A stretch of DNA of 64,000 bases, taken from an uncultured bacterium (GTDB taxonomy: Bacteria; Caldisericota; Caldisericia; JAAYUI01). The stretch is taken from contig CBDUSO010000005.1 in assembly GCA_965370295.1 (NCBI GenBank), positions 7,580-71,579 on the forward strand, given 5' to 3'. A program made the translations under genes and the position numbers. This document shows, one piece after another, positions 2,607 through 45,264 of this stretch; positions within the stretch are counted from its first letter, which is position 1, and each line of letters begins with the position of its first letter. The notes beneath the pieces are model-generated. The model ran no database searches. It was not told the origin of the DNA and was given only the letters and a program-made list of their open reading frames with translations.

Positions 2607-3926
2607 ATGGCTGAAAAAAAATTCAACACCAATTTTATGCGTCGACTCTTCAAACACAAATTGTCTGTGATCGGTTTGACAATCATTCTTTTGATGATTG
2701 TTGTTTCATTGTTTGCAGGTGTGATTGCTCCTGATCCATACTCAATGAATCTTGATGCAAAGCTGATTCCCCCCATGAAAGAAATTCATGCTGCAAAATC
2801 AAAAACTGAATTTTTAACCAAAGAATATATCTATGAGGTATCCAAGTCTGAAGAATCATTTTCCAAAGAAGTCGGATTAAAATCTGAAACTGTTTTATTT
2901 GAAAAAATTGGTGTTGCTCTGGATGTAAGATTATCTGATGGTTCGAGAGCTGTTGTTCCGACAAACAGTGGGACTCTTCAGCCCGGAACAACTGTAGTCG
3001 GTGAATCGGATGAGTGGAATACATTCAGATCAAACAGATCTGTGGATATTCTAAAAAGCAGATTCCAATATGCACCAAAAGGAAAACATACCAAGTCCAC
3101 CAAAGAGGTGGTAGCAGGAGATATGGTTGATGTTGAGTGGGAAGATGCTGGAATTGCATATATTGTTGTTGACAGTGAAACAGGAAATAAGCGATTACAT
3201 GCAGAGGGCCAGGCTGATCTAACCCCCACCGAGATTGAGATTGGACCAATGAAAAGACCTCTACTTGGAACAGACAGTGCGGGTCGAGATATTGCTCAGA
3301 GGTTGATTCATGGAGCAAGAATCTCTCTGTATGTCGGTGTTGTTGTCATATTTATCTCTCTTTTGATAGGAATAACATTGGGTGCACTCGCTGGATTTTA
3401 TGGTGGATTGACTGATTCTGTTATCTCAAGATTCACAGATATTATGTTTGCATTCCCCGGTTTGCTGTTTGCGATAGCTGTCATGGCTGTTTTGGGACGA
3501 GACTTGGTTAACGTGTTTATTGCATTGGGATTGGTTGGTTGGCCACCGATTGTTAGAATTATTCGTGGTGAAATAATTGCGTTAAAAGAGTCAGAATTCG
3601 TAGAGGCTGCAAAGTCCATGGGTGCAAGGAATTCACGAATAATCATTAAACACCTCTTGCCAAACACCCTTGCACCGATCATTGTTTACTCATCGCTGGG
3701 AATTGCTGGTGCAATTATGTCGGAAGCCGGATTATCATTTCTGGGAATTGGTGTGAGACCGCCGATGCCATCCTGGGGTTCGATGATAAATGAAGGGTTT
3801 CAACATGCACTTGCCTCACCACATGTCTGGCTTGTACCAGGAGTTCTGATTGCAATAGTTGTGTTGGCATTCAACTTCCTTGGAGATGGACTTCGAGACG
3901 CCCTGGACCCAAAACTGAAAATATGA
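2607..3926 (+). CDS. oppC: Oligopeptide/dipeptide ABC transporter permease (OppC/DppC family) with ~140-aa insertion in the first periplasmic loop
   Basis: OppC_N-like N-terminus and TM1. LLGTDSAGRDIAQRL motif appears only at ~residue 220 (normally ~80-100). Conserved permease core downstream. Confidence 0.8.
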   Translation: MAEKKFNTNFMRRLFKHKLSVIGLTIILLMIVVSLFAGVIAPDPYSMNLDAKLIPPMKEIHAAKSKTEFLTKEYIYEVSKSEESFSKEVGLKSETVLFEKIGVALDVRLSDGSRAVVPTNSGTLQPGTTVVGESDEWNTFRSNRSVDILKSRFQYAPKGKHTKSTKEVVAGDMVDVEWEDAGIAYIVVDSETGNKRLHAEGQADLTPTEIEIGPMKRPLLGTDSAGRDIAQRLIHGARISLYVGVVVIFISLLIGITLGALAGFYGGLTDSVISRFTDIMFAFPGLLFAIAVMAVLGRDLVNVFIALGLVGWPPIVRIIRGEIIALKESEFVEAAKSMGARNSRIIIKHLLPNTLAPIIVYSSLGIAGAIMSEAGLSFLGIGVRPPMPSWGSMINEGFQHALASPHVWLVPGVLIAIVVLAFNFLGDGLRDALDPKLKI

Positions 3927-3994: not shown

Positions 3995-4510
3995 ATGCTA
4001 GTACCTCTTGATATACAACACAAGACGTTTAAGAGCGGTGTTTCTGGTTACAACAAGCAGGAAGTCCAGGAATTTCTCTCTCAGGTCGAAAAAGATTTTT
4101 CACAGCTTTATCGTGATAACAAAGAGCTTCAGGAAAAAGTCGAGCGATTATCTGAGGAAGTTGACAGATACCGCTCAACGGGACGACAGCTTGAACAAGC
4201 CCTGACCCTTGCTCAGAAAACTGCTGAGGATGTAAAAAATACCGCAAGGCACGAGGCAGAGCTGATAGTCAGTGTTGCAATATCCAAGGCAGAGCAACAG
4301 ACAAATGAAACTCGCCAGTTGATGCGTTCCATTACTGGAGCATATCTTGAATTCAAGAGTGAATTCCGAGCCTACTTAACAACATTTCTCAATCTTCTTG
4401 ATAACATGGATGTCTCACTTGTTGAGAAAACAAAAGAATCAAAAGCCAGATTTGAAAATATTCCTGAAATATCCGCTGAACAGCAATCGGAAGAAATTGG
4501 CGAATCCTAG
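3995..4510 (+). CDS. divIVA: DivIVA domain protein (cell-division/polar scaffold)
   Basis: N-terminus MLVPLDIQHKTFKSGVSGYNKQEVQEFLSQV matches the DivIVA lipid-binding N-domain. Coiled-coil remainder. GGGGG RBS. Confidence 0.8.
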   Translation: MLVPLDIQHKTFKSGVSGYNKQEVQEFLSQVEKDFSQLYRDNKELQEKVERLSEEVDRYRSTGRQLEQALTLAQKTAEDVKNTARHEAELIVSVAISKAEQQTNETRQLMRSITGAYLEFKSEFRAYLTTFLNLLDNMDVSLVEKTKESKARFENIPEISAEQQSEEIGES

Positions 4511-5209: not shown

Positions 5210-6352
5210 TTAGTTAAGTATGCTGTTGTTCTCAAAGCTGTTGAATGCAAACAGATTCACTTCGAAGTAGGATTTATCACCCTTCATTGACAGTTTCACT
5301 GGGTATGTTTCCAAGTTACCATCAATTATCACCCAGAGCGTGACATCAAATGTTTCGTTGTCGCTATCTGTATACTTTGTTGAGTATGAAGAGCAACTGT
5401 ATCCTGACTGGTTTCCGATTGAATCTCCAAGCTTCATACCTTCAGTGCTTGAGATTTCATATCCAATATCATCAAGAAGAGAAAGCGAATCTTTGATCAT
5501 GCTGTCCAGTTCACTCATTTCTGATGCGTCGACATTTGAATATTCGGAGCTTGATTCATCAAATTTGCGGTACATACTACCACTATATTTGTATTTTCCA
5601 GCGGTAGATTCCATTTCATATGAAAACGGCAACATAAGAACTGTGCCAGAGTATGAACTGGAAATCTCATTTGCAGAACTTCCAACTAATATTTCCATTT
5701 TGAAAGAAACTAGATTTTTAAGGGATGAAACCAGGCTTTGCCCCTCGCCAACAACAGGTTCGATTTCAAAGTATTCAATAGTTTCACCTTTGGAAAGATT
5801 GTATGCCCTGGTGTATAGCTTGTAGCCGTCAGCAGTAATTGTGACTTTTTTTAATCCCGGTCTGAGGTATTTGATTTCAAAATTCCCCTCTTCATCTGTT
5901 GTTGCTGTTTTCCCATCAATTTCAATAACTGCATTGCTGATGAGTTTTTTGTAATCATTCTGGGGTTTTTTATTTTCTTCCCTCTGTGCAACCAGTCCAT
6001 GAATCCATGTCTTAACGATTGGCTCAACGGGAAGATCGTACTCCAACACACCATCCTCAACGGTGATCGGTTTGATGAATCTCTTGTAGTCCAGCTTATC
6101 ATCATCTGTCTCGATGCGATATCTTCCTGGTTCTACAGATATTGAATAGTAGCCATTTTTATCTGGTGTGACCTCAATGGCAGGTTTTCTCATATTGCCA
6201 AGGTCCTTCAGTATAATGGTAATATCGGTTATAGGATCACCGTAAACATTATCGTACACCCTTCCTTCGATACCCTGTGAAACTCCACAGGCAAGCACAA
6301 TAACAGCTGTCAGCAGAACCACAACAGTCAACGCGAGCATTCTTTTCATCAT
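5210..6352 (-). CDS. Hypothetical lipoprotein with carboxypeptidase-regulatory-like (beta-sandwich) N-terminal domain
   Basis: Start chosen at MMKRM (GGAGG RBS). Signal peptide with lipobox LAC. GRVYD..GDPITD..PGRYRIE resembles the CarbopepD_reg fold. Ser/Tyr/Glu-rich C-half. Confidence 0.5.
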   Translation of the reverse strand: MMKRMLALTVVVLLTAVIVLACGVSQGIEGRVYDNVYGDPITDITIILKDLGNMRKPAIEVTPDKNGYYSISVEPGRYRIETDDDKLDYKRFIKPITVEDGVLEYDLPVEPIVKTWIHGLVAQREENKKPQNDYKKLISNAVIEIDGKTATTDEEGNFEIKYLRPGLKKVTITADGYKLYTRAYNLSKGETIEYFEIEPVVGEGQSLVSSLKNLVSFKMEILVGSSANEISSSYSGTVLMLPFSYEMESTAGKYKYSGSMYRKFDESSSEYSNVDASEMSELDSMIKDSLSLLDDIGYEISSTEGMKLGDSIGNQSGYSCSSYSTKYTDSDNETFDVTLWVIIDGNLETYPVKLSMKGDKSYFEVNLFAFNSFENNSILN

Positions 6353-6471: not shown

Positions 6472-6547
6472 GGGGCAGTAGCTCATCTGGCAGAGTGCAT
6501 CCTTCGCAAGGATGAGGTAGGGAGTTCGAGTCTCCTCTGCTCCACCA
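6472..6547 (+). tRNA. tRNA-Ala (anticodon CGC), CCA encoded
   Basis: Cloverleaf readable: acceptor GGGGCAG/CTGCTCC with diagnostic G3:U70 pair; anticodon loop TTCGCAA; T-arm GGTTCGAGTCC-like. Confidence 0.85.
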
Positions 6548-7605: not shown

Positions 7606-8559
7606 TCAATCTCTCAACTCGCGACCGGCAAGTTTGTAAAAAACGTTTTCAAGGCTACCTTCGCTCAAACGAATATTTTTTACAGGAATACCAGAATCAC
7701 CGAGAGCCTCAAGGATAATTGAAAGTACCTCGGTTGTGGATTCAAGTTTGATGAGAAGTGTTGAGCCAAATTTTTCAAGACTCTCAATTGGTACAGAGCA
7801 GAAGAGTTGTTTTCTGATTACATCGGTTGGAATATTTTCAAGACCGTCCGCCTCAAGCTCGATCTGGTTTTGTTCACCAAAACAGTTCAGAATATTTTCA
7901 AGATAATCCAGGGCAAGTAATGTTCCCTTGTGCATTATGCCAACTTTTCTGCAGACACTTATGATTTCTCGGGTGTAGGTGGTTGTGATGATGATGGTTT
8001 TGCCTCTGTTTGAGAGAAGATTTAGACCATCTGTGATTATCCTTGCGGATCTGTCGTCGAGTCCTTCAGTTGGTGACTCAAGCATGATGATGCGGGGATC
8101 GGATAACATTGATATTGCAACTGAAAGTCTCTTTGCGTATGAATAGGGCAGTCGTTGGATTGGGATATGGGCTTCTGGTGTGAGCTCGAACAGGTCAAGA
8201 GCCTCCAGCATTATTTCGTTCAAACGACGTTTTTTTACGGTGTTGAAACTTCCAAAAAATTTGAGATTGTCGTGGGCGTTAAAGTCGGGGTAGAGTGCTT
8301 GGGTTTGAGGAACGAGAGAGATGAGTTTTCGAGCCTTGGCACCTGACAAGCCATACATATCAATACCCGAAATAGAAACACTGCCCTCGGATGGCTTAAG
8401 GATGCCGGCAAGAGTGTTTATCAGAGTGGTTTTTCCAGAACCCGCGGGACCAAGAATTCCAAAGCTCTCACCATCTGCGATCTCAAAGTTGAGATTTTCA
8501 AGAACCTTTGTGTTGCCGAAGCTCTTTGTCAGGTTTTTTACTTTAACCAGTGCGTCCAT
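7606..8559 (-). CDS. ABC transporter ATP-binding protein
   Basis: Walker A GPAGSGKTT, ABC signature and Walker B regions present. 317 aa with C-terminal extension. Confidence 0.8.
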   Translation of the reverse strand: MDALVKVKNLTKSFGNTKVLENLNFEIADGESFGILGPAGSGKTTLINTLAGILKPSEGSVSISGIDMYGLSGAKARKLISLVPQTQALYPDFNAHDNLKFFGSFNTVKKRRLNEIMLEALDLFELTPEAHIPIQRLPYSYAKRLSVAISMLSDPRIIMLESPTEGLDDRSARIITDGLNLLSNRGKTIIITTTYTREIISVCRKVGIMHKGTLLALDYLENILNCFGEQNQIELEADGLENIPTDVIRKQLFCSVPIESLEKFGSTLLIKLESTTEVLSIILEALGDSGIPVKNIRLSEGSLENVFYKLAGRELRD

Positions 8560-29504: not shown

Positions 29505-30494
29505 GTGAATGTGAACGACATATTTCTACTAATTGGTGCAGGATTTGCGATAAGTCTTGTGATTGGGTATCCGATCATACTGCTTTTGAAATCCTTAAAA
29601 ACAGGCTCAAAAGTAAGAACAGAAGCACCTGAAGGACACCAGAAAAAAGCTGGAACTCCTTCAATGGGTGGGTTCATATTCATGATTTCAGCAACCGCAA
29701 CCGCACTTATGCTTTCAAGATTCACAGGACTCATGACCGATTTTTCCATGCATTATATCAAGTGGGGATTGTATGCACTCTGGGGATTTGGTTTGATTGG
29801 ATTCATCGATGATGCAATCAAGGTTTTTTCAAATTCTCCTCAGGGGCTTCCCGGCAGATGGACAATCGGGCTTCAGATGATGGTTGCAATGCCATTCATC
29901 ATGATTCACTACCAGATTCTTCCTCCAGTTTTTGGAGCGGGAACTCCTGAGTCAATTTCTGCAATGGTTTATGTGGTCGCAATAATCGCCGTTGTAAATG
30001 CCGTTAATCTGGCAGATGGACTCGATGGACTTGCAGGTGGGGCAACCTCAATAACCCTCATCTCCCTAATCCCAATTGTGATGATGGTTGATAAAGGAAT
30101 TTCAATCGTTCCGCTTGCCGTAATTGGTGGATTATTAGGTTTCCTTGTATTTAACTTTCATCCAGCAAAGGTGTGGATGGGGAATATGGGATCGAATGCA
30201 CTTGGAGGAATCCTGGCTATTACAGCGATTTATTCCGGCCAGATATGGCTTTTCATAATTGGAGGATTCCTGTTTGTATTTGAAGCACTCTCAACCATAA
30301 TCCAAACAACATATTTTAAATATACAAAAAAAATCTCAAAAGATGGAGTAGGCAAGAGAGTTTTTCTTATGACACCAATTCATCACCACTTTGAACTTCT
30401 TGGCTGGTCAGAAAAGAAAATTGTTTTATCATTCTGGTTTGCTTCGGTTGTATTTGGCGGGTTGATGCTGGGGTTGTATTTTCTGCTGGCATAG
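29505..30494 (+). CDS. mraY: Phospho-N-acetylmuramoyl-pentapeptide transferase
   Basis: KKAGTPSMGG, NAVNLADGLDGLAGG and the MraY-specific MTPIHHHFEL.GWSE C-terminal motif. GTG start with GAGGTG RBS. Confidence 0.85.
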   Translation: MNVNDIFLLIGAGFAISLVIGYPIILLLKSLKTGSKVRTEAPEGHQKKAGTPSMGGFIFMISATATALMLSRFTGLMTDFSMHYIKWGLYALWGFGLIGFIDDAIKVFSNSPQGLPGRWTIGLQMMVAMPFIMIHYQILPPVFGAGTPESISAMVYVVAIIAVVNAVNLADGLDGLAGGATSITLISLIPIVMMVDKGISIVPLAVIGGLLGFLVFNFHPAKVWMGNMGSNALGGILAITAIYSGQIWLFIIGGFLFVFEALSTIIQTTYFKYTKKISKDGVGKRVFLMTPIHHHFELLGWSEKKIVLSFWFASVVFGGLMLGLYFLLA

Positions 30495-30507
30495 AAGACG
30501 ATATACT

Positions 30508-30543
30508 TAACTAATCTATAACGTAAAGGTAATTGTGTATAAT
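30508..30543 (+). promoter_or_regulatory. Candidate promoter for the peptide gene (TATAAT -10 at 30538-30543 preceded by TGTG; weak -35)
   Basis: Consensus -10 hexamer ~50 nt upstream of the peptide start codon. Confidence 0.3.
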
Positions 30544-30591
30544 AAAATGTCTGTTATGATGGAATCATCTAAATGAAAGGAGGCATGGGAA

Positions 30592-30783
30592 ATGCCATAT
30601 GAGCATGACGAGATGTCAAAGAAGGTAGCGTTGGATGAGGGTATGATCGACCCAAACGTAATGGAGTTGATCCCCCAAAAGAGGGTAGTCTGGATGGACA
30701 TGGAACACTTCGATCCAAATCAAATGGAGTTGTGTGGGTGCCCTAATTATCGATGTTGGCAGAACGGTTCCTTAATGCAGTAA
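30592..30783 (+). CDS. Candidate RiPP precursor peptide (63 aa): acidic leader with internal DPN(V/Q)MEL repeat and C-terminal core CGCPNYRCWQNGSLMQ
   Basis: Strong AAAGGAGG RBS 8 nt upstream of ATG. Small ORF immediately upstream of a radical SAM/SPASM enzyme. Three Cys plus Tyr/Trp/Asn clustered in the last 20 residues. Confidence 0.6.
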   Translation: MPYEHDEMSKKVALDEGMIDPNVMELIPQKRVVWMDMEHFDPNQMELCGCPNYRCWQNGSLMQ

Positions 30784-30809
30784 CCTTTTGTTGAGTTCAT
30801 TCTTATTGT

Positions 30810-30837
30810 GAGCGGGGAGCTGACTTGCTCCCCGCTC
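30810..30837 (+). promoter_or_regulatory. Perfect 11-bp stem hairpin (GAGCGGGGAGC TGACTT GCTCCCCGCTC) between precursor and maturase genes, no U-tract; probable partial terminator/RNA-stability element setting precursor:enzyme ratio
   Basis: Perfect GC-rich inverted repeat 27 nt after the peptide stop, 37 nt before the rSAM start. Confidence 0.5.
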
Positions 30838-30873
30838 ACCCTGTTGCAAATAGAGCGCGGTCGGAGGTATTGA

Positions 30874-32223
30874 ATGCGTTGGACAGAATATCTAGTTAGA
30901 AGTAATTTGGATAATGATAGAATCGTTCTTTTCTCAACTTTATCAGGTTCTGTGGTTGTGCTTGATAGTAAACTAATCCAAGCTATAGGTAACAAAAAAT
31001 TTCCGATGGAGACCCGTCTGGTAAATGATCTCAAGAAAACTGGATTTTTAGTTGAAGAAACATTTGGTGAAAAGGAATGGGCAACTGAACGTTTTCTACA
31101 TAAATTTAAAAATCCCGGAACTTTGGATATCGTTGTTGCTCCATCAATGACTTGTAACTTCGGTTGTCCGTATTGTTATGAGCGACGAGATAACCAAAAA
31201 CCTATGAGTGAATCAACTTTCCAGAATTTGTTGCAATTCATTGAAAAGAGAGCACAGACCTTAAAAGTAAAGAAAATTACGATGAGCTGCTATGGTGGAG
31301 AGCCACTATTGTACCCTGAGTATTTTGTAAGGATAAAGAAATTCATTGATAACAAATTCCCTGAGTTAAAACAATTCTGGGGAATAATAACAAATGGTTC
31401 ATTGATAAATGAAAGATTGGAATATCTACACTCTGAGATTGGACTTGACAGAGCACAAGTAACGCTCCATGGGAGTGAAGAATTCCATAATAAAGAGAGA
31501 CCATACTCTGATGGAAGTGCTTCCTACCAAGAAGTAGTCAATGGAATAAAAAAAGCAGTAAATCTTGGAATCAAAAACATTGAGATAAGAGTGAACGTTG
31601 ATAAGGAAAATGCAAACTCAATGGAGAAATTGCTTTCTGACCTCACCAGGCAAGGACTGGCAAACAAGAAAAATTTGCGTGTATATCCATATCCGATTAC
31701 CAAAATGACTGAGAATTCTGCTAAGTATGAAGTTGCTTGTATTCAGCAACACGATTATTTTGATAAACTCAGAGATTGGACGAAGATGATCACAGAAAAA
31801 GGTTTTGGTGGTTCTAATATTAAAAATTATTTTCGTTATTTGATTGCACCAATGTTATGTGGATCATATTCCAGAGGATTTTATGCAATAGGACCAAGGG
31901 GTGAAATTAATCCCTGCTGGGAGCACATCAACGAAACAAAATTCTTCGTTGGGAACGTAAACAATAATCCGACAATAGACCCAGAAAAAGAAAAGTGGTG
32001 GTTGGAAGGCGGTAGAAATAAGATACTTGACTGTGCCAAAAAGGATTGTGTCCTACTTCCGATATGTGGTGGGGGCTGTGCAGCACAGGCGATACATGAA
32101 ACCGGAGATATTTCTGGTAGATCATGCTTTAGAATGGTTGAAGATACTAAAAGATTCTTGAAACTCTATGCTGAATATGCAGAAAATACTGGAAATGTAA
32201 GAGAGGTTGATTACTCCAGATAA
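30874..32223 (+). CDS. Radical SAM enzyme with C-terminal SPASM domain (peptide-modifying maturase family; ~85-aa N-terminal extension possibly an RRE-type peptide-binding domain)
   Basis: CNFGCPYC (CxxxCxxC) at ~residue 95. C-terminal auxiliary-cluster cysteines: C...C...C-x2-C-x5-C-GGGC (SPASM pattern). GGAGG RBS. Confidence 0.85.
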   Translation: MRWTEYLVRSNLDNDRIVLFSTLSGSVVVLDSKLIQAIGNKKFPMETRLVNDLKKTGFLVEETFGEKEWATERFLHKFKNPGTLDIVVAPSMTCNFGCPYCYERRDNQKPMSESTFQNLLQFIEKRAQTLKVKKITMSCYGGEPLLYPEYFVRIKKFIDNKFPELKQFWGIITNGSLINERLEYLHSEIGLDRAQVTLHGSEEFHNKERPYSDGSASYQEVVNGIKKAVNLGIKNIEIRVNVDKENANSMEKLLSDLTRQGLANKKNLRVYPYPITKMTENSAKYEVACIQQHDYFDKLRDWTKMITEKGFGGSNIKNYFRYLIAPMLCGSYSRGFYAIGPRGEINPCWEHINETKFFVGNVNNNPTIDPEKEKWWLEGGRNKILDCAKKDCVLLPICGGGCAAQAIHETGDISGRSCFRMVEDTKRFLKLYAEYAENTGNVREVDYSR

Positions 32224-32231
32224 GTGTCAAG

Positions 32232-32585
32232 CTAGTCAGCGGGATAACCAATTTCAACAAGTTTTGTCTTGACGTCGTCAAGGGTTGTTTTTCTTTTATT
32301 GAAATCAACTGCAACAGTTTTTTTGTCGACATCAACGACAACTGATTCAATCCCGTCCATCTCGTAGATTGCTTTTTTTACCTTGTTTGCACAGTTCATG
32401 CACATGATTGAACTACAAGCTAATTCTGCTCTCATCTCGTCCTCCGGAGGAAAGCCTGCAATAGACATCTCATGTTCGATTCTCGTTAGAGACACTTGAG
32501 ACTCGTCAAAGTCCATCTCAAATGCACCGAAGAGAAGTTTTGAAACTCTGTTTATACCTTGTAAGAATCCGACCGATTCTTGCAC
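32232..32585 (-). CDS. Heavy-metal-associated (HMA) domain protein, CopZ-like ferredoxin fold with ~50-aa N-terminal extension (true start may be internal at MRAEL, ~32435)
   Basis: SIMCMNCANKVKKAI...VVVDVDKKTVAVDF matches the HMA M/C-x-C-x2-C metal-binding loop and fold. Confidence 0.65.
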   Translation of the reverse strand: MQESVGFLQGINRVSKLLFGAFEMDFDESQVSLTRIEHEMSIAGFPPEDEMRAELACSSIMCMNCANKVKKAIYEMDGIESVVVDVDKKTVAVDFNKRKTTLDDVKTKLVEIGYPAD

Positions 32586-34946: not shown

Positions 34947-35665
34947 CGACCCGAAATCAAAAGCGGAATAAAAACTCCAAGACTTTTGAATAATCTTGGA
35001 ATCCTTACGAATGGTTCGACCGCTGCTCTCCACAACCACTCCAGACCAATTCTGCACATCCATGCGGGGGCTCTTTTTTTTGATCCAGCCCAAACATCAA
35101 ATACTCCGCCAACGCCGATAAAAAACTTGATATTTTTTAACTGACTTCTATTTTTTGAAATCCAAAGTTCTTGTTTGGGAATTCCGAGTGCAACGAGGAG
35201 AATCTCTGCATTGGATTTGTTTATTGACTCAATAAGAGTATCGTCATCAAATTCATATCCAGACATAAAACCAACCACTTCAATGTTTGGGAATTTATTT
35301 TCAACCGATTCTTTTGCTTTTTTTACAATTTCATCTTTTGCACCAAACAAAAAAACTTTTGTGCTAGGTTTTGAAGTTTTGAGAATGCTCTCGGTTAATT
35401 CAATTCCGGGGATTCGTTCGGTTACTTTTTTACCAAAACGTTTCAACAGAATAACCGAACCGATTCCATCAGGGACAAGAATATCAGCTTGCAAGCAGGT
35501 ATTTAGAAATTCAGAATCCCTCTTGCAGAGGGTAACAGATTCCAGGTTTGCAGTGATAATAAACTTCGATTTTTTATCAAACGAATTCCCCAAATCTGAC
35601 GTGAGTTGTGGAATGCTACCCAGATACCAGTTTGAAGAATTCAGGAGTTGCGAGCTACCACTCAT
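34943..35665 (-). CDS. tagA: WecG/TagA/CpsF-family glycosyltransferase (N-acetylmannosaminyltransferase-like)
   Basis: 240 aa. DILVPDGIG..., LFGA..., VGFMSGY and LLVALGIPKQE segments typical of Glyco_tran_WecB family. Confidence 0.75.
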   Translation of the reverse strand: MSGSSQLLNSSNWYLGSIPQLTSDLGNSFDKKSKFIITANLESVTLCKRDSEFLNTCLQADILVPDGIGSVILLKRFGKKVTERIPGIELTESILKTSKPSTKVFLFGAKDEIVKKAKESVENKFPNIEVVGFMSGYEFDDDTLIESINKSNAEILLVALGIPKQELWISKNRSQLKNIKFFIGVGGVFDVWAGSKKRAPAWMCRIGLEWLWRAAVEPFVRIPRLFKSLGVFIPLLISGR

Positions 35666-38082
35666 GGATATTCTGCAATGATTTTGTCGCCTTCGAGTAT
35701 GATGGAGCCACCAAGAGATTCGACCACAAATCGGAGTGGCACGATTGGGTATCTATTCTTGAACAGGTATGTTGGGGAGTATGCTTCTATTTTCTCTCCG
35801 TCGAGATATGCTCTCTTTTCGTCTATGATTAACCTTAGTTTTTTCCCGTCCAGGTAGTAGTCTATTTTCTTCTCATCACGATCGTAATAGGCTGTGCCAC
35901 CGAGTTCTTCAACGATAAACCTGAAGTAAACGTAGTATCGATAATAATTTGTATCGATGTGCGGGGCAGGATAAACGTTTATTGTTTTGCCATTTGCTTC
36001 AACATTGTTATGACCCTGCCTCATGACAATCCGTTTAACTTTTCCATCAAAAAACTTTGATGTAACCGGTATTATTTGAATTCCACCGTTACAGATTATT
36101 GAGATGTTGCCCTCTCGTTGACCTTCTTTTGCGTTTTCACCAACCGCCCAAACTGTGACTTCAACCTCACCATTAAACTCTGATGGGACCACTTCGATCC
36201 AGTCAGTGTCGGTTGTGATTTTGCCAAAAATTGTTCCACTGCCGGTATTCATCAGATGGATTATGCGAGATCGTTTTGTGGAGAGAGGAACTTTTTCAAA
36301 AATGATTTCATCGGTGTCGACGAATAGTTTAGGTAGACCGCCAAAATTAGAGAGTGGGACTTTCAATATCCTGCTGTTTGCTGTGTCTGAGATGAAAACA
36401 GATAATCCAGAAATTGTGATTCCAGATGGCTGGTTTAAAAGTTCAAGATTGTCGTTGTCTGACAAAGATTTAAGGCTGGATAATGGTCCACCAAATTCAC
36501 CATAGCTGCCAAGTTCAAAGCCACTCTCAGAAAAGACTCGAATGTCTGATACCCCGGCATCACAAATAAAAACTCTTCCGAATTCGTCAATTGTGATTGA
36601 AGATGGCTTTGTGAAAGCAACACCCGCAAGCGATTCGATAAATTTTCCCTGTGGATCGAAGATGAGTACTTCACCTAAATCTTCGTCAACCACCCAGATT
36701 CTGTCCTGTGAGTCGATTGCAACATCAACAGGTGCCGATAGTTCGTCGTCAAATGAAAAAACCCAAGTGCCACTCATGGAAACTGATGCGACACGAGAAT
36801 TTCCTGTGTCTGCTACAAAGATATTGCCTGTTTTTTTATCGATGCCAATTCCCCGCGGTACTCTGAATTGACCTGCACCACTTCCCTCTTCTCCGAAGCC
36901 AAACAAATGATCACCAAACAGAGAATAGATTTGAATTCTGTTGTTTCCGGTATCTGCAACCACCAGATCGTCTCTTGTTGAAATATCACAGTCTTCTGGA
37001 TTTTTGAGATTTGTTGATTCGGTTCCCTGAGAACCAATGCTCTGAATGTGTTCACCAGTTTCAGTTGAATAAACATTTATGAAGTCGGAACTTGACTCTG
37101 AAACATAGATGTAGCCGTCCGCTGTTGTGATTCCTTTGGGCCAGAGTGAAACCCCTTTGAGTCCTATTGAGTAGAGTTGCTTGTTGCCGTCGAGTTTTAA
37201 GATTCGGTTATTTCCAGTGTCTGCCACCCACAAGATTCCGTTTGCGTCTACCACAAAGCCGGTTGGGTATCTAAATTGGCTTGAACCAATTCCATGTTCT
37301 CCAATTGTTTTTAATAGTTTTCCCTTTGGCGAGAATATTTGAATCTTGGAATTTCCAGTGTCTGAAACATAAACAGAGTTTCCTGAGATTCCAACACATG
37401 ATGGTGATGAAAGAATTCCATCACCGATAGTTCGGATGAAACTACCAACTCTATTAAAAACTGATACTCGATCGTTGCCGTTATCAACTACGTAAACGTT
37501 GTCATTTTCATCAACGGTTAAGTCAGTAGGATTTGCGAGTTCTCCATCTCTTGAGCCCTCTCGACCGATCGAATACAAGAAAACTCCGGATGAAGCAAAT
37601 ATTTTTACCTGGCAAGTTGCCTGGTCAAGAACAAGCATTTCTCCCTTGGAGTTGTATGCAAGCGAAACGGGTTTAATTACGCCACAATCAGGGTTGTCAG
37701 AGAAGTGCATGTTATCAAGAAATTTTCCACGTCTGTCAAAAAAAGAAATTTTCCCGCTTAAGGGGTCGCAGATGATATATCTGGAACCAGAATCCTTGAT
37801 AACTTTTGTGGGATAGATTGACATTCCATCGCCAAAAGAGCTGATGAATTCACCCTCTGTGTTGAGTATTTTAATCTGACCATTCCCGGTGTCGGCAATG
37901 ATTAGTTTTTTGGCATCAAGATCAACAAACAATGATCGCGGGTATTTGAAATGTGCTTTTTCGGAAAGAATTCCAATAACATCAATCTCGCTTACAGATG
38001 CTCTAATGGTAACAAAAAAAAGAATCATCGTCATTGCCAGGGACAGAGAGATAAAGGAGTGAATCTTGGAGTGTTTCTTCAT
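35662..38082 (-). CDS. Secreted NHL-repeat (six-bladed beta-propeller, multiple copies) protein with C-terminal copper-amine-oxidase-N-like wall-associated domain
   Basis: Start at MKKHSKIHSFISLSLAMTMILFF (ATGA overlap with upstream gene). >10 repeats of the V.D.G.I.V.D..N.RI/V pattern. C-terminal YPIVPLRFVVESLGG-type domain. Confidence 0.65.
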   Translation of the reverse strand: MKKHSKIHSFISLSLAMTMILFFVTIRASVSEIDVIGILSEKAHFKYPRSLFVDLDAKKLIIADTGNGQIKILNTEGEFISSFGDGMSIYPTKVIKDSGSRYIICDPLSGKISFFDRRGKFLDNMHFSDNPDCGVIKPVSLAYNSKGEMLVLDQATCQVKIFASSGVFLYSIGREGSRDGELANPTDLTVDENDNVYVVDNGNDRVSVFNRVGSFIRTIGDGILSSPSCVGISGNSVYVSDTGNSKIQIFSPKGKLLKTIGEHGIGSSQFRYPTGFVVDANGILWVADTGNNRILKLDGNKQLYSIGLKGVSLWPKGITTADGYIYVSESSSDFINVYSTETGEHIQSIGSQGTESTNLKNPEDCDISTRDDLVVADTGNNRIQIYSLFGDHLFGFGEEGSGAGQFRVPRGIGIDKKTGNIFVADTGNSRVASVSMSGTWVFSFDDELSAPVDVAIDSQDRIWVVDEDLGEVLIFDPQGKFIESLAGVAFTKPSSITIDEFGRVFICDAGVSDIRVFSESGFELGSYGEFGGPLSSLKSLSDNDNLELLNQPSGITISGLSVFISDTANSRILKVPLSNFGGLPKLFVDTDEIIFEKVPLSTKRSRIIHLMNTGSGTIFGKITTDTDWIEVVPSEFNGEVEVTVWAVGENAKEGQREGNISIICNGGIQIIPVTSKFFDGKVKRIVMRQGHNNVEANGKTINVYPAPHIDTNYYRYYVYFRFIVEELGGTAYYDRDEKKIDYYLDGKKLRLIIDEKRAYLDGEKIEAYSPTYLFKNRYPIVPLRFVVESLGGSIILEGDKIIAEYP

Positions 38083-38621
38083 ACTGGAATAATCACCTTC
38101 TGTTGTAGAAGTTTGCTTATCAATTGTGCACTGACCGCCGCACTCATCGGGCAATCATCGATTAATCGTTTGATTGTCCTTGTTCCGTCAACCAGAATTA
38201 AAAAATTCCATTCATTCGAATCAAGTTGAAGTTTATCTTGATTCTCAAGTCCAGCCTTGTTTACAATTAATTTTGTCTCCATCGGTGGAAGGTTTATCAT
38301 GATTTCGTGCGTTTTTGTTGCTTTTTTCAAGCCCTCTCTAATTAAAGTGCTGTTACTCTCTTTGATCGTTTGAGGGGGGATTGTTATTCCGTCACTGAAA
38401 ATTATTTGTCCTTTTGTCCATGAGAATAATTCCCAGATAGCCTTTGTACCTTGGTCGCGGCTTGTTGTTGCGTGAATAATTTGCCCTTTGCTGAAGTAGA
38501 TGGAGGCATGTTCACTGGTTTCAAGAAGTTGAATCTGTAATCTGCCTGAGCGACCCGCAACCTCAACAATCTGAATCAACTCAGCCAGAGTCGTTTCTCT
38601 AAGGTTTAATGGAAGATCCAA
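38079..38621 (-). CDS. DUF4388 domain-containing protein
   Basis: N-terminal LRETTLAELIQIVEVAGRSGRLQI pattern characteristic of DUF4388. Confidence 0.55.
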   Translation of the reverse strand: MDLPLNLRETTLAELIQIVEVAGRSGRLQIQLLETSEHASIYFSKGQIIHATTSRDQGTKAIWELFSWTKGQIIFSDGITIPPQTIKESNSTLIREGLKKATKTHEIMINLPPMETKLIVNKAGLENQDKLQLDSNEWNFLILVDGTRTIKRLIDDCPMSAAVSAQLISKLLQQKVIIPV

Positions 38622-45095: not shown

Positions 45096-45168
45096 GGGTC
45101 GTTAGCTCAGGTGGTAGAGCATCTGCCTTTTAAGCAGAGGGTCGCTGGTTCGAGTCCAGCACGACTCA
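45096..45168 (+). tRNA. tRNA-Lys (anticodon TTT), no encoded CCA
   Basis: GGGTCGT acceptor, D-arm GCTCAGGTGGTAGAGC, anticodon loop CTTTTAA, T-arm GGTTCGAGTCC. Confidence 0.85.
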
Positions 45169-45189: not shown

Positions 45190-45264
45190 GGCCCCATGGT
45201 CTAACGGTTAGGATGACACTCTTTCAAGGTGTAGGCAGGAGTTCGATTCTCCTTGGGGCTACCA
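45190..45264 (+). tRNA. tRNA-Glu (anticodon TTC), CCA encoded
   Basis: GCCCCAT 5' end typical of tRNA-Glu, D-loop TCTAACGGTTAGG, anticodon loop CTTTCAA, T-arm GGTTCGATTCC, 3' GGGGCTACCA. Confidence 0.8.

Follow-up and report, generated by a model that had tools for sequence, protein, structure and literature searches.

The 64,000 nucleotides analysed here (the window), part of a Caldisericia-like genome, contain the gene of a 63-residue cysteine-containing peptide and, directly downstream, the gene of a radical SAM/SPASM enzyme, which very probably constitute a RiPP precursor/maturase pair. As best explanation of all findings we lean slightly towards a self-contained two-gene RiPP cassette, in which the duplicated leader of the peptide would guide thioether formation. 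With this pair the radical SAM/SPASM RiPPs gain a small precursor/maturase family that was not catalogued before, and this family is confined to Caldisericota, a phylum known almost solely from metagenomes. A RiPP-type precursor was already claimed in the first-pass annotation of this DNA, and both the leader/core architecture and the dedicated radical SAM/SPASM enzyme gene bear this out.

Translation of the plus strand reproduces the claimed open reading frame of 63 codons with its leader motifs and CGCPNYRC-WQN (Table 1). C48, C50 and C55 are the only cysteines of the precursor and W56-Q57-N58 follows directly after them. The reading frame is a real gene, as it possesses a ribosome-binding site and has homologues in several other genomic contexts, with a radical SAM/SPASM gene next in line at all loci that have enough downstream sequence; GGAGG also precedes the start codons at homologous loci. 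The TATAAT hexamer further upstream was not picked up by the consensus promoter scan, which needs both hexamers. Neither in Pfam nor in NCBIfam does any model match the precursor peptide, and a literature search with core and leader sequences as strings gave no match. The GC content across the cassette (0.36-0.41) is like that of the flanks, so horizontal transfer or a compositional island was rejected.

Table 1. Features of the precursor/maturase cassette (positions are those of the window)
Feature	Position	Strand	Details
Putative -10 element, perfect TATAAT	30538..30543	+	~50 nt 5' of precursor start; poor -35; weak evidence
Precursor ribosome-binding site AAAGGAGG	30576..30583	+	8 nt before ATG; sequence reading
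Precursor peptide gene	30592..30783	+	63 aa plus stop; translation MPYEHDEMSKKVALDEGMIDPNVMELIPQKRVVWMDMEHFDPNQMELCGCPNYRCWQNGSLMQ
Leader repeat unit 1, residues 12-26 VALDEGMIDPNVMEL	30625..30669	+	contains IDPNVMEL, 30646-30669 (residues 19-26)
Leader repeat unit 2, residues 33-47 VWMDMEHFDPNQMEL	30688..30732	+	contains FDPNQMEL, 30709-30732 (residues 40-47)
Core region, residues 48-63 CGCPNYRCWQNGSLMQ	30733..30780	+	alignment and codon comparison
Intercistronic hairpin	30808..30839	+	13-bp perfect stem (GTGAGCGGGGAGC / GCTCCCCGCTCAC), 6-nt loop, without U-tract
Maturase ribosome-binding site GGAGG	30863..30867	+	sequence reading
Radical SAM/SPASM peptide maturase, 449 aa	30874..32223	+	co-oriented, 90 nt 3' of precursor gene
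CX3CX2C motif, C94/C98/C101	31153-31176	+	in maturase gene
SPASM cysteines C329, C348, C387, C392, C398, C402, C418	31858-32127	+	in maturase gene

The precursor family comprises about ten protein clusters among the 1.84 billion representatives searched, and all named genomes that carry it belong to Caldisericota. Relatives in genomes were found by a scan with the precursor alignment, and a genome scan queried with the radical SAM protein confirmed no relative. The metagenome scan yielded only two further loci, both of the P0124 type; the HMMER matches P0127 and P0135 were discarded as repetitive non-homologous sequences. In at least five genomic contexts a radical SAM/SPASM gene adjoins every Cys-core peptide of the family with enough downstream sequence, and a more distant enzyme homologue is likewise found beside Cys-containing peptides. 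The window precursor is 71% identical to a relative whose genome also encodes the enzyme P0007 (34% identical). P0007 was rejected as ortholog of the window enzyme since it is a paralog from another locus, where four precursors of the second core type (type B, see below) stand in tandem; the true syntenic ortholog of the window enzyme is 60% identical, which agrees with the 51-90% of the neighbouring genes. A CopZ-like HMA gene lies convergently just 3' of the cassette and a MraY-like gene is also adjacent. As neither of them is conserved at the other family loci, a functional link to these neighbours was rejected. The cassette comes without a linked protease or exporter.

An internal tandem duplication makes up the leader (residues 1-47) and exceeds chance. 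Its repeat of about 16 residues, V-x-Φ-D-x3-Φ-D-P-N-x-M-E-Φ, recurs with an offset of 21 residues and also takes in a hydrophobic strand-like segment (KVALD / VVWMD). In composition-preserving shuffles the best 8-mer self-match of the precursor was equalled in 1 of 3000, the best 16-mer in 4 of 3000 and the best 21-mer in 1 of 3000, and a profile-profile comparison of the two halves across the family (hhalign) matched them in register over 16 columns (probability 95.3%, E = 2.2e-8). The duplicated element of the first-pass annotation is present as described there and conserved. Its description as a heptad holds insofar as IDPNVMEL and FDPNQMEL both occur, but the true unit is bigger and amounts to a tandem duplication of about 16-21 residues. 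Both copies are kept in almost all Cys-core precursors of the family. Among 13 family sequences W34 and D36 are invariant – both carried by repeat unit 2, which directly abuts the core – and M24, E25, D41 and M45 are near-invariant; conserved repeats with these two invariant residues fit a binding function of the leader. A "recognition helix" was suggested for the duplicated element as well. Here the duplication stands but a helix remains conjectural: in the AlphaFold2 model of the peptide alone (pLDDT 46, thus of low confidence) residues 9-13 and 32-36 form strands that pair with each other, and neither DPNxMEL is helical.

Behind this shared leader two types of family cores are found. Type A, to which the window peptide belongs, reads C-x-x-Y-R-C-W-x-N, and type B has Cys at each fifth residue in a C-x4-C-x4-C array and ends with GGG-Y or x-x-G-Y. 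The alignment of homologues that had been recommended for judging the conservation of Cys, Trp and Asn was run: across the 13 family members C55 is invariant and C50 near-invariant, and cysteines are the only core residues conserved family-wide. Of the three-Cys core described earlier C50 and C55 are therefore conserved, but C48 is limited to a subgroup. Every type A core retains Y53, R54, W56 and N58. W-x-N occurs in all four distinct ones (WQN, WQN, WTN and WSN), including P0134 with its strongly diverged leader, and W56 and N58 are absent from type B cores. The loss of conservation at Cys, Trp and Asn that the first-pass annotation had named as refuting evidence was therefore not observed. 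With W56-Q57-N58, or W-[QTS]-N in type A generally, the core shows the aromatic-X-X motif of triceptides. The window, P0002 and P0124 share N52-Y-R-C55, but in P0134, a distant type A member, Ser replaces N52. The window core itself has a single C-x4-C interval (C50-C55) and Ser at position 60. Between the window and the syntenic ortholog all 9 codon differences in core residues 48-60 are synonymous, compared with 13 synonymous and 16 non-synonymous ones in the leader; the core is under strong purifying selection.

The maturase matches Radical_SAM PF04055 (E = 1.9e-18), and its SPASM cysteines are arranged as C329-x13-G-x4-C348, C387-x4-C392-x5-C398-x3-C402 and C418, the C387-C392 spacing being x4 instead of the canonical x2. 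In 109 homologues the cysteines of CX3CX2C and SPASM are invariant, save C101, which is kept in at least 90% of them. The N-terminus (about residues 1-80) is predicted to be an RRE-like beta3-alpha3 domain, as three strands and then three helices are found at residues 7-79 of the AlphaFold2 model (pLDDT 94); this domain in isolation gave no PqqD/RRE HMM or other Pfam match even at E = 10. An eighth conserved Cys, C289, is invariant in the family enzymes and aligns to Leu in CteB. Auxiliary cluster I of CteB takes a substrate Cys as ligand, and with C289 this cluster might already have all its ligands in the present family, in contrast to CteB, a point that counts against the thioether reading given below.

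Among the named families of NCBIfam there is none whose curated cut-off the maturase reaches. Its closest models, both with near full-length matches, are TIGR04463 "rSAM_vs_C_rich" (199.5 bits, cut-off 525) and CefB (NF038107, 190 bits, cut-off 600), and as these scores are far under the cut-offs the maturase is not a member of either. All seven family enzymes match these two models (best E ~1e-60), far more weakly than at cut-off level. Lower scores were obtained with the models of the ranthipeptide maturase PapB (114.6 bits, cut-off 340), DynA (87.4 bits, cut-off 450, full-length match), the SCIFF maturase (74.6 bits, cut-off 425) and DarW (56.8 bits, cut-off 650); YhhB (53.7 bits, cut-off 445) and AmcB (49.4 bits, cut-off 425) match only residues ~85-255, i.e. 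the radical SAM core. The nearest solved structure is the thioether-forming CteB (sequence E = 1.4e-10), with a near full-length fold match (Foldseek E = 3e-19, TM 0.68-0.72, 16-18% identity). ChlB, presumably a cyclophane-type enzyme, is ranked by Foldseek below CteB, TigE and anSME. Within the family the type A enzymes group in a separate subclade: the other three are 60, 40 and 36% identical to that of the window, and type B enzymes 31-33%. The enzymes of the two types differ at 19 positions; the four type A enzymes all carry Glu at position 350, where type B enzymes have Asn or Ser. The six positions in proximity of the catalytic site that are used for profiling in PMC10288494 correspond to Y102, Y140, I172, T197, W349 and E350 of the window enzyme. 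In the literature no relevant papers on CefB, Clo7bot, TIGR04463, OhkG or FlmE were found, and a paper in which the names OhkA and FlmA appear does not describe the radical SAM enzyme.

In the mechanism that we suggest the radical SAM/SPASM enzyme, whose gene lies 90 nt downstream, would act on the 63-residue peptide. We infer that the strand-like leader segments bind to the N-terminal RRE-like winged-helix domain, chiefly through the V-V-W-x-D that is invariant in unit 2, and that the second DPNxMEL, just before the core, sets the register in which C50 and C55 are fed into the active site. The 5'-deoxyadenosyl radical would then take hydrogen from an acceptor residue, and the Cys thiol, with an auxiliary Fe-S cluster helping, would close a thioether ring of the sactionine or ranthionine type. 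Candidate pairings are N52-x-x-C55 or C55-x-x-N58, both as Asn beta-thioether in the manner of NxxcB, or Cys with alpha-carbons in the C-terminal tail. NxxcB forms such an Asn beta-thioether and strictly needs Cys (PMC9389541). For an uncharacterised radical SAM enzyme the chemistry is, according to PMC10288494, unpredictable unless its identity to a known example is very high. From the maturase families and the solved structure closest to the enzyme as well as from the conserved cysteines, Cys thioethers as the shared modification are nevertheless the likeliest chemistry, to which we give an even chance or marginally better. As no protease or exporter is linked, the biological role may, as for SCIFF, differ from that of a classical secreted bacteriocin.

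Chemistry at the cysteines alone leaves the type A conservation of Y53, R54, W56 and N58 unexplained. The type A core could instead be defined, alone or together with thioethers, by a three-residue cyclophane in which a C-C bond joins the W56 indole and the N58 beta-carbon, although we regard this as rather unlikely. Such Trp-Asn Csp2-Csp3 links are made by the SPASM maturase of dynobactin (PMC10288494), and the DynA model is matched over its full length. W-x-N is retained in every distinct type A core including that of P0134, and the separate type A subclade with its 19 differing positions makes a subtype-specific chemistry possible. However, type B lacks W-x-N despite having the same leader and belonging to the same enzyme clade, so a three-residue cyclophane cannot be the chemistry shared by the family. 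Moreover, the 87 bits of DynA are well under the 190-200 bits of the Cys-peptide maturase families, YhhB and AmcB (49-54 bits) cover only the radical SAM core and ChlB, the presumed cyclophane-type enzyme, is a less similar fold than CteB, TigE and anSME. Thioethers and cyclophanes had both been offered as options by the first-pass annotation; family-wide conservation speaks for the cysteines of the former, and the motif of the latter is restricted to type A. Another radical cross-link on Y53-R54-C55-W56, either a WprB-/RrrB-like Arg-Trp or Arg-Tyr C-C bond or a Cys-Arg thiomorpholine as in enteropeptin/KgrC, appears very unlikely. All four residues are invariant in type A cores, Glu350 of the type A enzymes could pair with R54, and there are precedents, namely Trp-Arg links by radical SAM enzymes (PMC11851443) and a thiomorpholine from Cys and the adjacent Arg alpha-carbon (PMC12703449). 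Against this, the top NCBIfam matches include no specific similarity to WprB/RrrB/KgrC-like families, the residue order R-C-W is unlike the W-P-R motif, and the E350/R54 correlation is one of 4 versus 3 sequences and confounded by phylogeny. It is finally conceivable, though distinctly improbable, that one SPASM enzyme forms a Cys thioether as well as a C-C bond between Trp and Asn (or Arg/Tyr and Trp) on the 11-residue block C-x-x-Y-R-C-W-x-N, with its duplicated-leader modules engaging the RRE and the entrance of the catalytic barrel. The product would then be a compact hybrid thioether-cyclophane peptide, and the switch from type A to B with E350 changed to N/S would amount to nature's own experiment on how SPASM chemistry is reprogrammed. 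To our knowledge such a hybrid peptide would be the first RiPP described from Caldisericota. Titles and abstracts of literature that names Caldisericota together with RiPPs and biosynthetic gene clusters contained no RiPP from this phylum.

The role of the leader can be questioned too. The DPNxMEL duplication might have nothing to do with recognition by the maturase and reflect descent of the leader from a small repeat-containing domain, its repeats then having a role in folding or solubility or forming twin protease sites, which we consider unlikely. The larger Cys-free proteins P0132 (228 aa) and P0133 (400 aa), whose genes are not adjacent to a radical SAM gene, indeed carry two tandem copies of the complete leader module N-terminally, and the low-confidence peptide-only model pairs the strand segments with each other. 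Nevertheless, nearly all Cys-core precursors conserve both copies, with W34 and D36 invariant, and the NHLP and Nif11 leaders, although derived from protein domains, still act in recognition. That the peptide is an unmodified small Cys peptide, binding metal or forming disulfides and merely situated beside a radical SAM gene, seems extremely improbable. The convergent CopZ-like gene and the lack of protease and exporter in the cassette would suit such a function. Yet peptide and radical SAM gene are adjacent at every locus across contexts while the CopZ neighbour is not conserved, and the leader/core conservation pattern combined with an RRE-like domain is typical for RiPP systems.

Considering a thioether-forming two-gene cassette as the preferred reading, a close organizational counterpart is SCIFF with CteB/ScfB, the ranthipeptide system of Clostridia, which likewise combines a short Cys precursor with a radical SAM-SPASM enzyme; this enzyme bears an RRE, and an RRE-like domain is predicted for the window enzyme. 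SCIFF cassettes are also located among housekeeping genes with lineage-conserved synteny and lack protease and exporter; their precursor, however, is unrelated, has 6 Cys compared with 3 here and belongs to another phylum, and the leader here is 47 residues long and duplicated. TIGR04463 (radical SAM enzymes with Cys-rich peptides) and CefB are the best-scoring enzyme families, and type B cores are themselves arrays with Cys at every fifth residue, but the type A core of the window differs, with a single C-x4-C interval and with its Y-R-C-W-x-N block. None of the NCBIfam precursor models matches the family precursors. As far as we know, the chemistry of the TIGR04463/CefB families is uncharacterised. 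With the streptococcal NxxcA/NxxcB system (Asn-Cys beta-thioether) the window core has in common N52-Y-R-C55 and also C55-W-Q-N58, but leader and taxon are unrelated and Ser takes the place of N52 in P0134; no NxxcB-specific model was among the best 25 of 63 NCBIfam matches. Triceptides, dynobactin and darobactin share aromatic-X-Asn (W-Q-N) with type A but not with type B, and the similarity to their maturases is weak and in all cases below cut-off. The sactipeptide system StsA/StsB (CxCxC...GxGxG) likewise has a C-x-C core start and possible C-terminal acceptors, an analogy that is confined to how the cores are laid out; the hairpin logic of sactionines is described in PMC10288494. Like the NHLP/Nif11 leaders, the long leader found here (~47 residues) is apparently related to a domain of larger non-precursor proteins. 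It differs from them by unrelated sequence, by its internal tandem duplication and by a far smaller family in one lineage.

With two genes and a core of about 16 residues that contains a strictly conserved 11-residue block, the cassette offers a compact test system in which thioether and cyclophane motifs overlap within one short core, and in which natural sister cores of type A and type B come with diverged enzymes. The duplicated leader is a testable case for the number of leader contacts needed with an RRE-SPASM enzyme. Knowing the chemistry of this enzyme clade would furthermore aid annotation of the large uncharacterised TIGR04463/CefB-like neighbourhood.

A further feature of the cassette is the hairpin between the two genes, which has a folding z of -3.9 with an equally good fold in 0 of 200 shuffles. 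Rfam gave three tRNAs and no other match across the window, so that a known RNA family was rejected for the hairpin. It may stabilise the mRNA or terminate transcription partially, and so increase the amount of precursor transcript relative to enzyme transcript. Each of the three remaining type A loci likewise has a hairpin at this place, with unrelated sequence.

The cassette is best assigned to a lineage-restricted radical SAM/SPASM RiPP family with a tandem-duplicated leader and, in type A members such as that of the window, a core of the pattern C-x-x-Y-R-C-W-x-N. Its precursor and maturase very probably constitute a RiPP pair; the two genes are inherited together throughout, across five or more genomic contexts, and the maturase carries three Fe-S cluster motifs. 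The systems closest in function and architecture are the two-gene SCIFF/CteB cassettes and likewise the TIGR04463 and CefB Cys-peptide systems, the latter two to our knowledge uncharacterised. The precursor falls into no catalogued family: none of the family peptides is matched by a Pfam or NCBIfam model, and a literature string search with core and leader sequences gave no match. What the first-pass annotation had observed was confirmed, its interpretation in part, and no finding so far sets the cassette apart from established RiPP logic.

Features of the cassette and its surroundings (window coordinates unless a compared locus is named)
Feature	Position	Strand	Remarks
MraY-type phospho-MurNAc-pentapeptide transferase	29505-30494		TIGR00445, 227 bits, above cut-off
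Ribosome-binding site AAAGGAGG	8 nt before precursor ATG	+	sequence reading
Precursor ORF	30592-30783	+	translation MPYEHDEMSKKVALDEGMIDPNVMELIPQKRVVWMDMEHFDPNQMELCGCPNYRCWQNGSLMQ
Intercistronic hairpin	30808-30839		perfect 13-bp GC-rich stem, no U-tract; z = -3.9
Type A hairpin, L001 (syntenic locus)	~8206-8235		
Type A hairpin, L002	~4087-4140		
Type A hairpin, L012	~3791-3819		
Radical SAM/SPASM maturase, 449 aa	30874-32223	+	90 bases downstream of precursor
Maturase W349-E350	31918-31923	+	CteB alignment
Terminator-like stem + T-run	32267-32283	+	just past maturase stop
830-aa protein	35662-38154	-	
tRNA genes (three)	6472-6544, 45096-45168, 45190-45261		sole Rfam matches in window

The first-pass annotation had described two copies of a DPN-containing heptad in the leader as a possible duplicated recognition helix. 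Both IDPNVMEL and FDPNQMEL are present (residues 19-26 and 40-47) and the repeat is not a product of chance. In composition-preserving shuffles the best non-overlapping 8-mer self-score was equalled once in 3000, the 16-mer score four times and the 21-mer score once in 3000. Because of these longer self-scores, together with the alignment at an offset of 21 residues that pairs VALDEGMIDPNVMELI with VWMDMEHFDPNQMELC, the repeat must be regarded as longer than the heptad. No helix is predicted on either DPNxMEL in a peptide-only structure model of low confidence (pLDDT 46), which places strands at residues 9-13 and 32-36; computation thus lends the recognition-helix reading no support. All members share the leader start M-x-Y-x-H-(N/D)-x-x-S-(I/L)-(K/R), and a module comes next in two copies, each comprising a hydrophobic strand-like segment ending in Asp or Asn, three variable residues and Φ-(D/N)-P-x-x-M-E-Φ. 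In an alignment of 13 sequences W34 and D36 are invariant, as are the start Met and the core C55, and M24, E25, V32, D41 and M45 are nearly so. Profiles of the leader halves (12 sequences each) align in register by hhalign over 16 columns (probability 95.3%, E = 2.2e-8). This match and the conservation show the leader to be an ancient tandem duplication, retained by almost the whole family; most of unit 1 is lost in the distant type A member P0134. Two larger proteins without Cys, P0132 (228 aa) and P0133 (400 aa, with a weak, sub-threshold bactofilin match), also carry two tandem copies of the complete module N-terminally, and neither has an adjoining radical SAM gene. The presence of the module there suggests that the leader was derived from, or donated to, a small protein domain; NHLP and Nif11 leaders are likewise related to protein domains. 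P0132 is encoded at L013 (6001-6687), with an S8 peptidase and a 370-aa protein of unknown kind close by.

Two core types sit behind this one leader. Type A has the pattern (C/S)-x-C-(P/G)-(N/S)-Y-R-C-W-x-N-(G/N)-(S/A) and occurs in the window, in its ortholog, in the widespread Caldisericia clade P0124 (CACPNYRCWTNNAMV) and in P0134 (SGCGSYRCWSNGSGVV). Type B shows a Cys at every fifth residue, usually with an aromatic residue just before it, e.g., CGCKQIFCASTYCGGGY and YCQSNFCNIGFC. The only Cys residues of the window's precursor are C48, C50 and C55, the last directly followed by W56-Q57-N58, as had been noted. In the homologue alignment C55 is invariant and C50 almost invariant across both types, C48 is confined to a subgroup, and W56 and N58 are kept in type A and absent from type B. 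Over the 13 core codons compared, window and ortholog differ by nine synonymous and no non-synonymous changes, as against 13 and 16 in the leader; therefore the peptide sequence of the core is itself under selection. Type A loci contain a single precursor and type B loci three or four in tandem. Such tandem copies, diverged and placed before one maturase, occur at L011 5131-5986 (the second locus on OY771555.1) and L024 504-1380, and the L011 copy at 5349-5555 was missed by the source's gene finder. A cassette of each type is present on the one Caldisericia chromosome OY771555.1.

The maturase has a Radical_SAM domain (PF04055, E = 1.9e-18) with the motif C94-x3-C98-x2-C101 and a complete SPASM Cys set (C329-x13-G-x4-C348, C387-x4-C392-x5-C398-x3-C402, C418). 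In an alignment of 109 homologues these cluster cysteines are invariant with the exception of C101 (kept in at least 90%). From the same alignment a confident AlphaFold2 model (pLDDT 94, pTM 0.91) was obtained, which predicts three strands and three helices in residues 7-79, i.e. an RRE-like N-terminal domain, which no PqqD HMM matches. The nearest solved structure is CteB, judged on sequence (E = 1.4e-10) as well as on fold (Foldseek E = 3e-19, TM about 0.7), followed among structural matches by TigE, anSME, ChlB and SuiB. The enzyme stays below the curated cut-off of every NCBIfam family and under the membership threshold of all named enzyme families (bits/cut-off: TIGR04463, paired with Cys-rich peptides, 199.5/525; CefB, Cys-every-fifth, 190/600; Clo7bot 162/600; geopeptide 157/400; FlmE/OhkG 146/500; PapB 115/340; DynA 87/450; SCIFF maturase 75/425). 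By sequence identity to the window maturase the enzymes sort into the same two groups as the cores (type A 60, 40 and 36%; type B 31-33%). Six positions in proximity to the catalytic site of CteB, F112, F152, T186, S210, H363 and Q364, are defined in PMC10288494, and in the CteB alignment they correspond to Y102, Y140, I172, T197, W349 and E350. All four type A enzymes carry Glu at position 350 and the type B enzymes Asn or Ser, and core Arg54 is invariant in type A and replaced by Phe, Tyr or Leu in type B, which suggests a possible E350-Arg54 charge pair in a sample that is small and confounded by phylogeny. An eighth conserved cysteine, C289 (31738-31740), is invariant in the seven-member enzyme family and Leu in CteB. 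A distant homologue (27% identity) at L021 (1167-1358, 4399-4798) is accompanied by an ABC transporter and by Cys-containing peptides with long Lys-rich tails, apparently a different, also uncatalogued precursor type.

In the proposed mechanism strand segments of the leader, V-V-W-x-D above all, would join the RRE sheet, and the second DPNxMEL, which abuts the core, would set the register. The maturase would then close one or more thioether rings from C50 and/or C55, plus C48 where present, with N52 (N-x-x-C) and N58 (C-x-x-N) as candidate acceptors. Cys thioethers are favoured as the shared chemistry of the family, at about even confidence, because Cys is the sole core feature common to all members, the two top-scoring curated enzyme families partner Cys-rich peptides, the best structural match CteB makes thioethers, and a more distant enzyme homologue also stands beside Cys-containing peptides. 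The candidate acceptors have a precedent in NxxcB, which makes an Asn beta-thioether for which Cys is strictly required (PMC9389541). PMC10288494 cautions that the chemistry of a radical SAM enzyme cannot be predicted unless its identity to one already characterised is very high.

A W56-N58 cyclophane in type A, alone or alongside thioethers, remains a live alternative, as W-x-N is kept even in the very diverged P0134 and SPASM enzymes form Trp-Asn bonds in dynobactin (PMC10288494). However, it cannot be the family-wide reaction, and the maturase is only weakly similar to cyclophane formers in NCBIfam (YhhB and AmcB, about 50 bits, over the radical SAM core only). The invariant Y-R-C-W block of type A cores would also allow Arg-Trp, Arg-Tyr or Cys-Arg (thiomorpholine) chemistry. 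The cassette offers a small, clean system for asking whether the products of this enzyme clade are thioethers, cyclophanes or a combination of the two.

The family has very few members. Among 5.8 billion proteins a word-indexed search returned only the precursor itself and one 71%-identical homologue, a profile search added four further clusters, and HMMER, run exhaustively over 1.84 billion representatives, gave 11 matches at E <= 1e-3. Two of these 11 were repetitive sequences and were discarded. Across 185,579 scanned species genomes and JGI metagenomes the family occurred only in MAGs of Caldisericota, Caldisericia or Caldisericales. The locus of the 71% homologue, on the 2.23-Mb Caldisericia chromosome OY771555.1, is fully syntenic with that of the window, with neighbour genes 51-90% and maturase 60% identical; the window thus almost certainly stems from a related genome of the Caldisericia.

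Between precursor stop and maturase start all four type A loci show a strong perfect hairpin (12-21 bp), whose sequences are unrelated between lineages, so that structure is kept and sequence is not; type B spacers (14-26 nt) are without hairpin. Its probable role is to tune the ratio of precursor to enzyme transcripts. The neighbours on either side are housekeeping genes, namely MraY-type transferase, M18 aminopeptidase and dUTPase upstream and, on the opposite strand downstream, a CopZ-like HMA protein, an ECF S-component, ComF, CsaB and TagA. The base composition of the cassette equals that of its flanks, and it has no linked gene for a protease, an exporter or immunity. The MraY-type gene adjoins the M18 aminopeptidase, an arrangement also seen in the syntenic chromosome, and no cell-wall synthesis gene was among the neighbour ORFs scanned. 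The terminator-like stem falls within the 3'-terminal part of the convergent CopZ-like ORF (32232-32585, -), whose stop codon is 8 nt from that of the maturase. The L001 ortholog of the 830-aa protein has NHL/SGL-type beta-propeller matches and a Cu_amine_oxidN1 domain, and related Cu_amine_oxidN1 proteins stand beside the cassettes of L002 and L011, too. The ComF-like gene of L001 (10608-11269) aligns to the window ComF as two overlapping segments in different frames, which suggests a frameshift or an assembly error.
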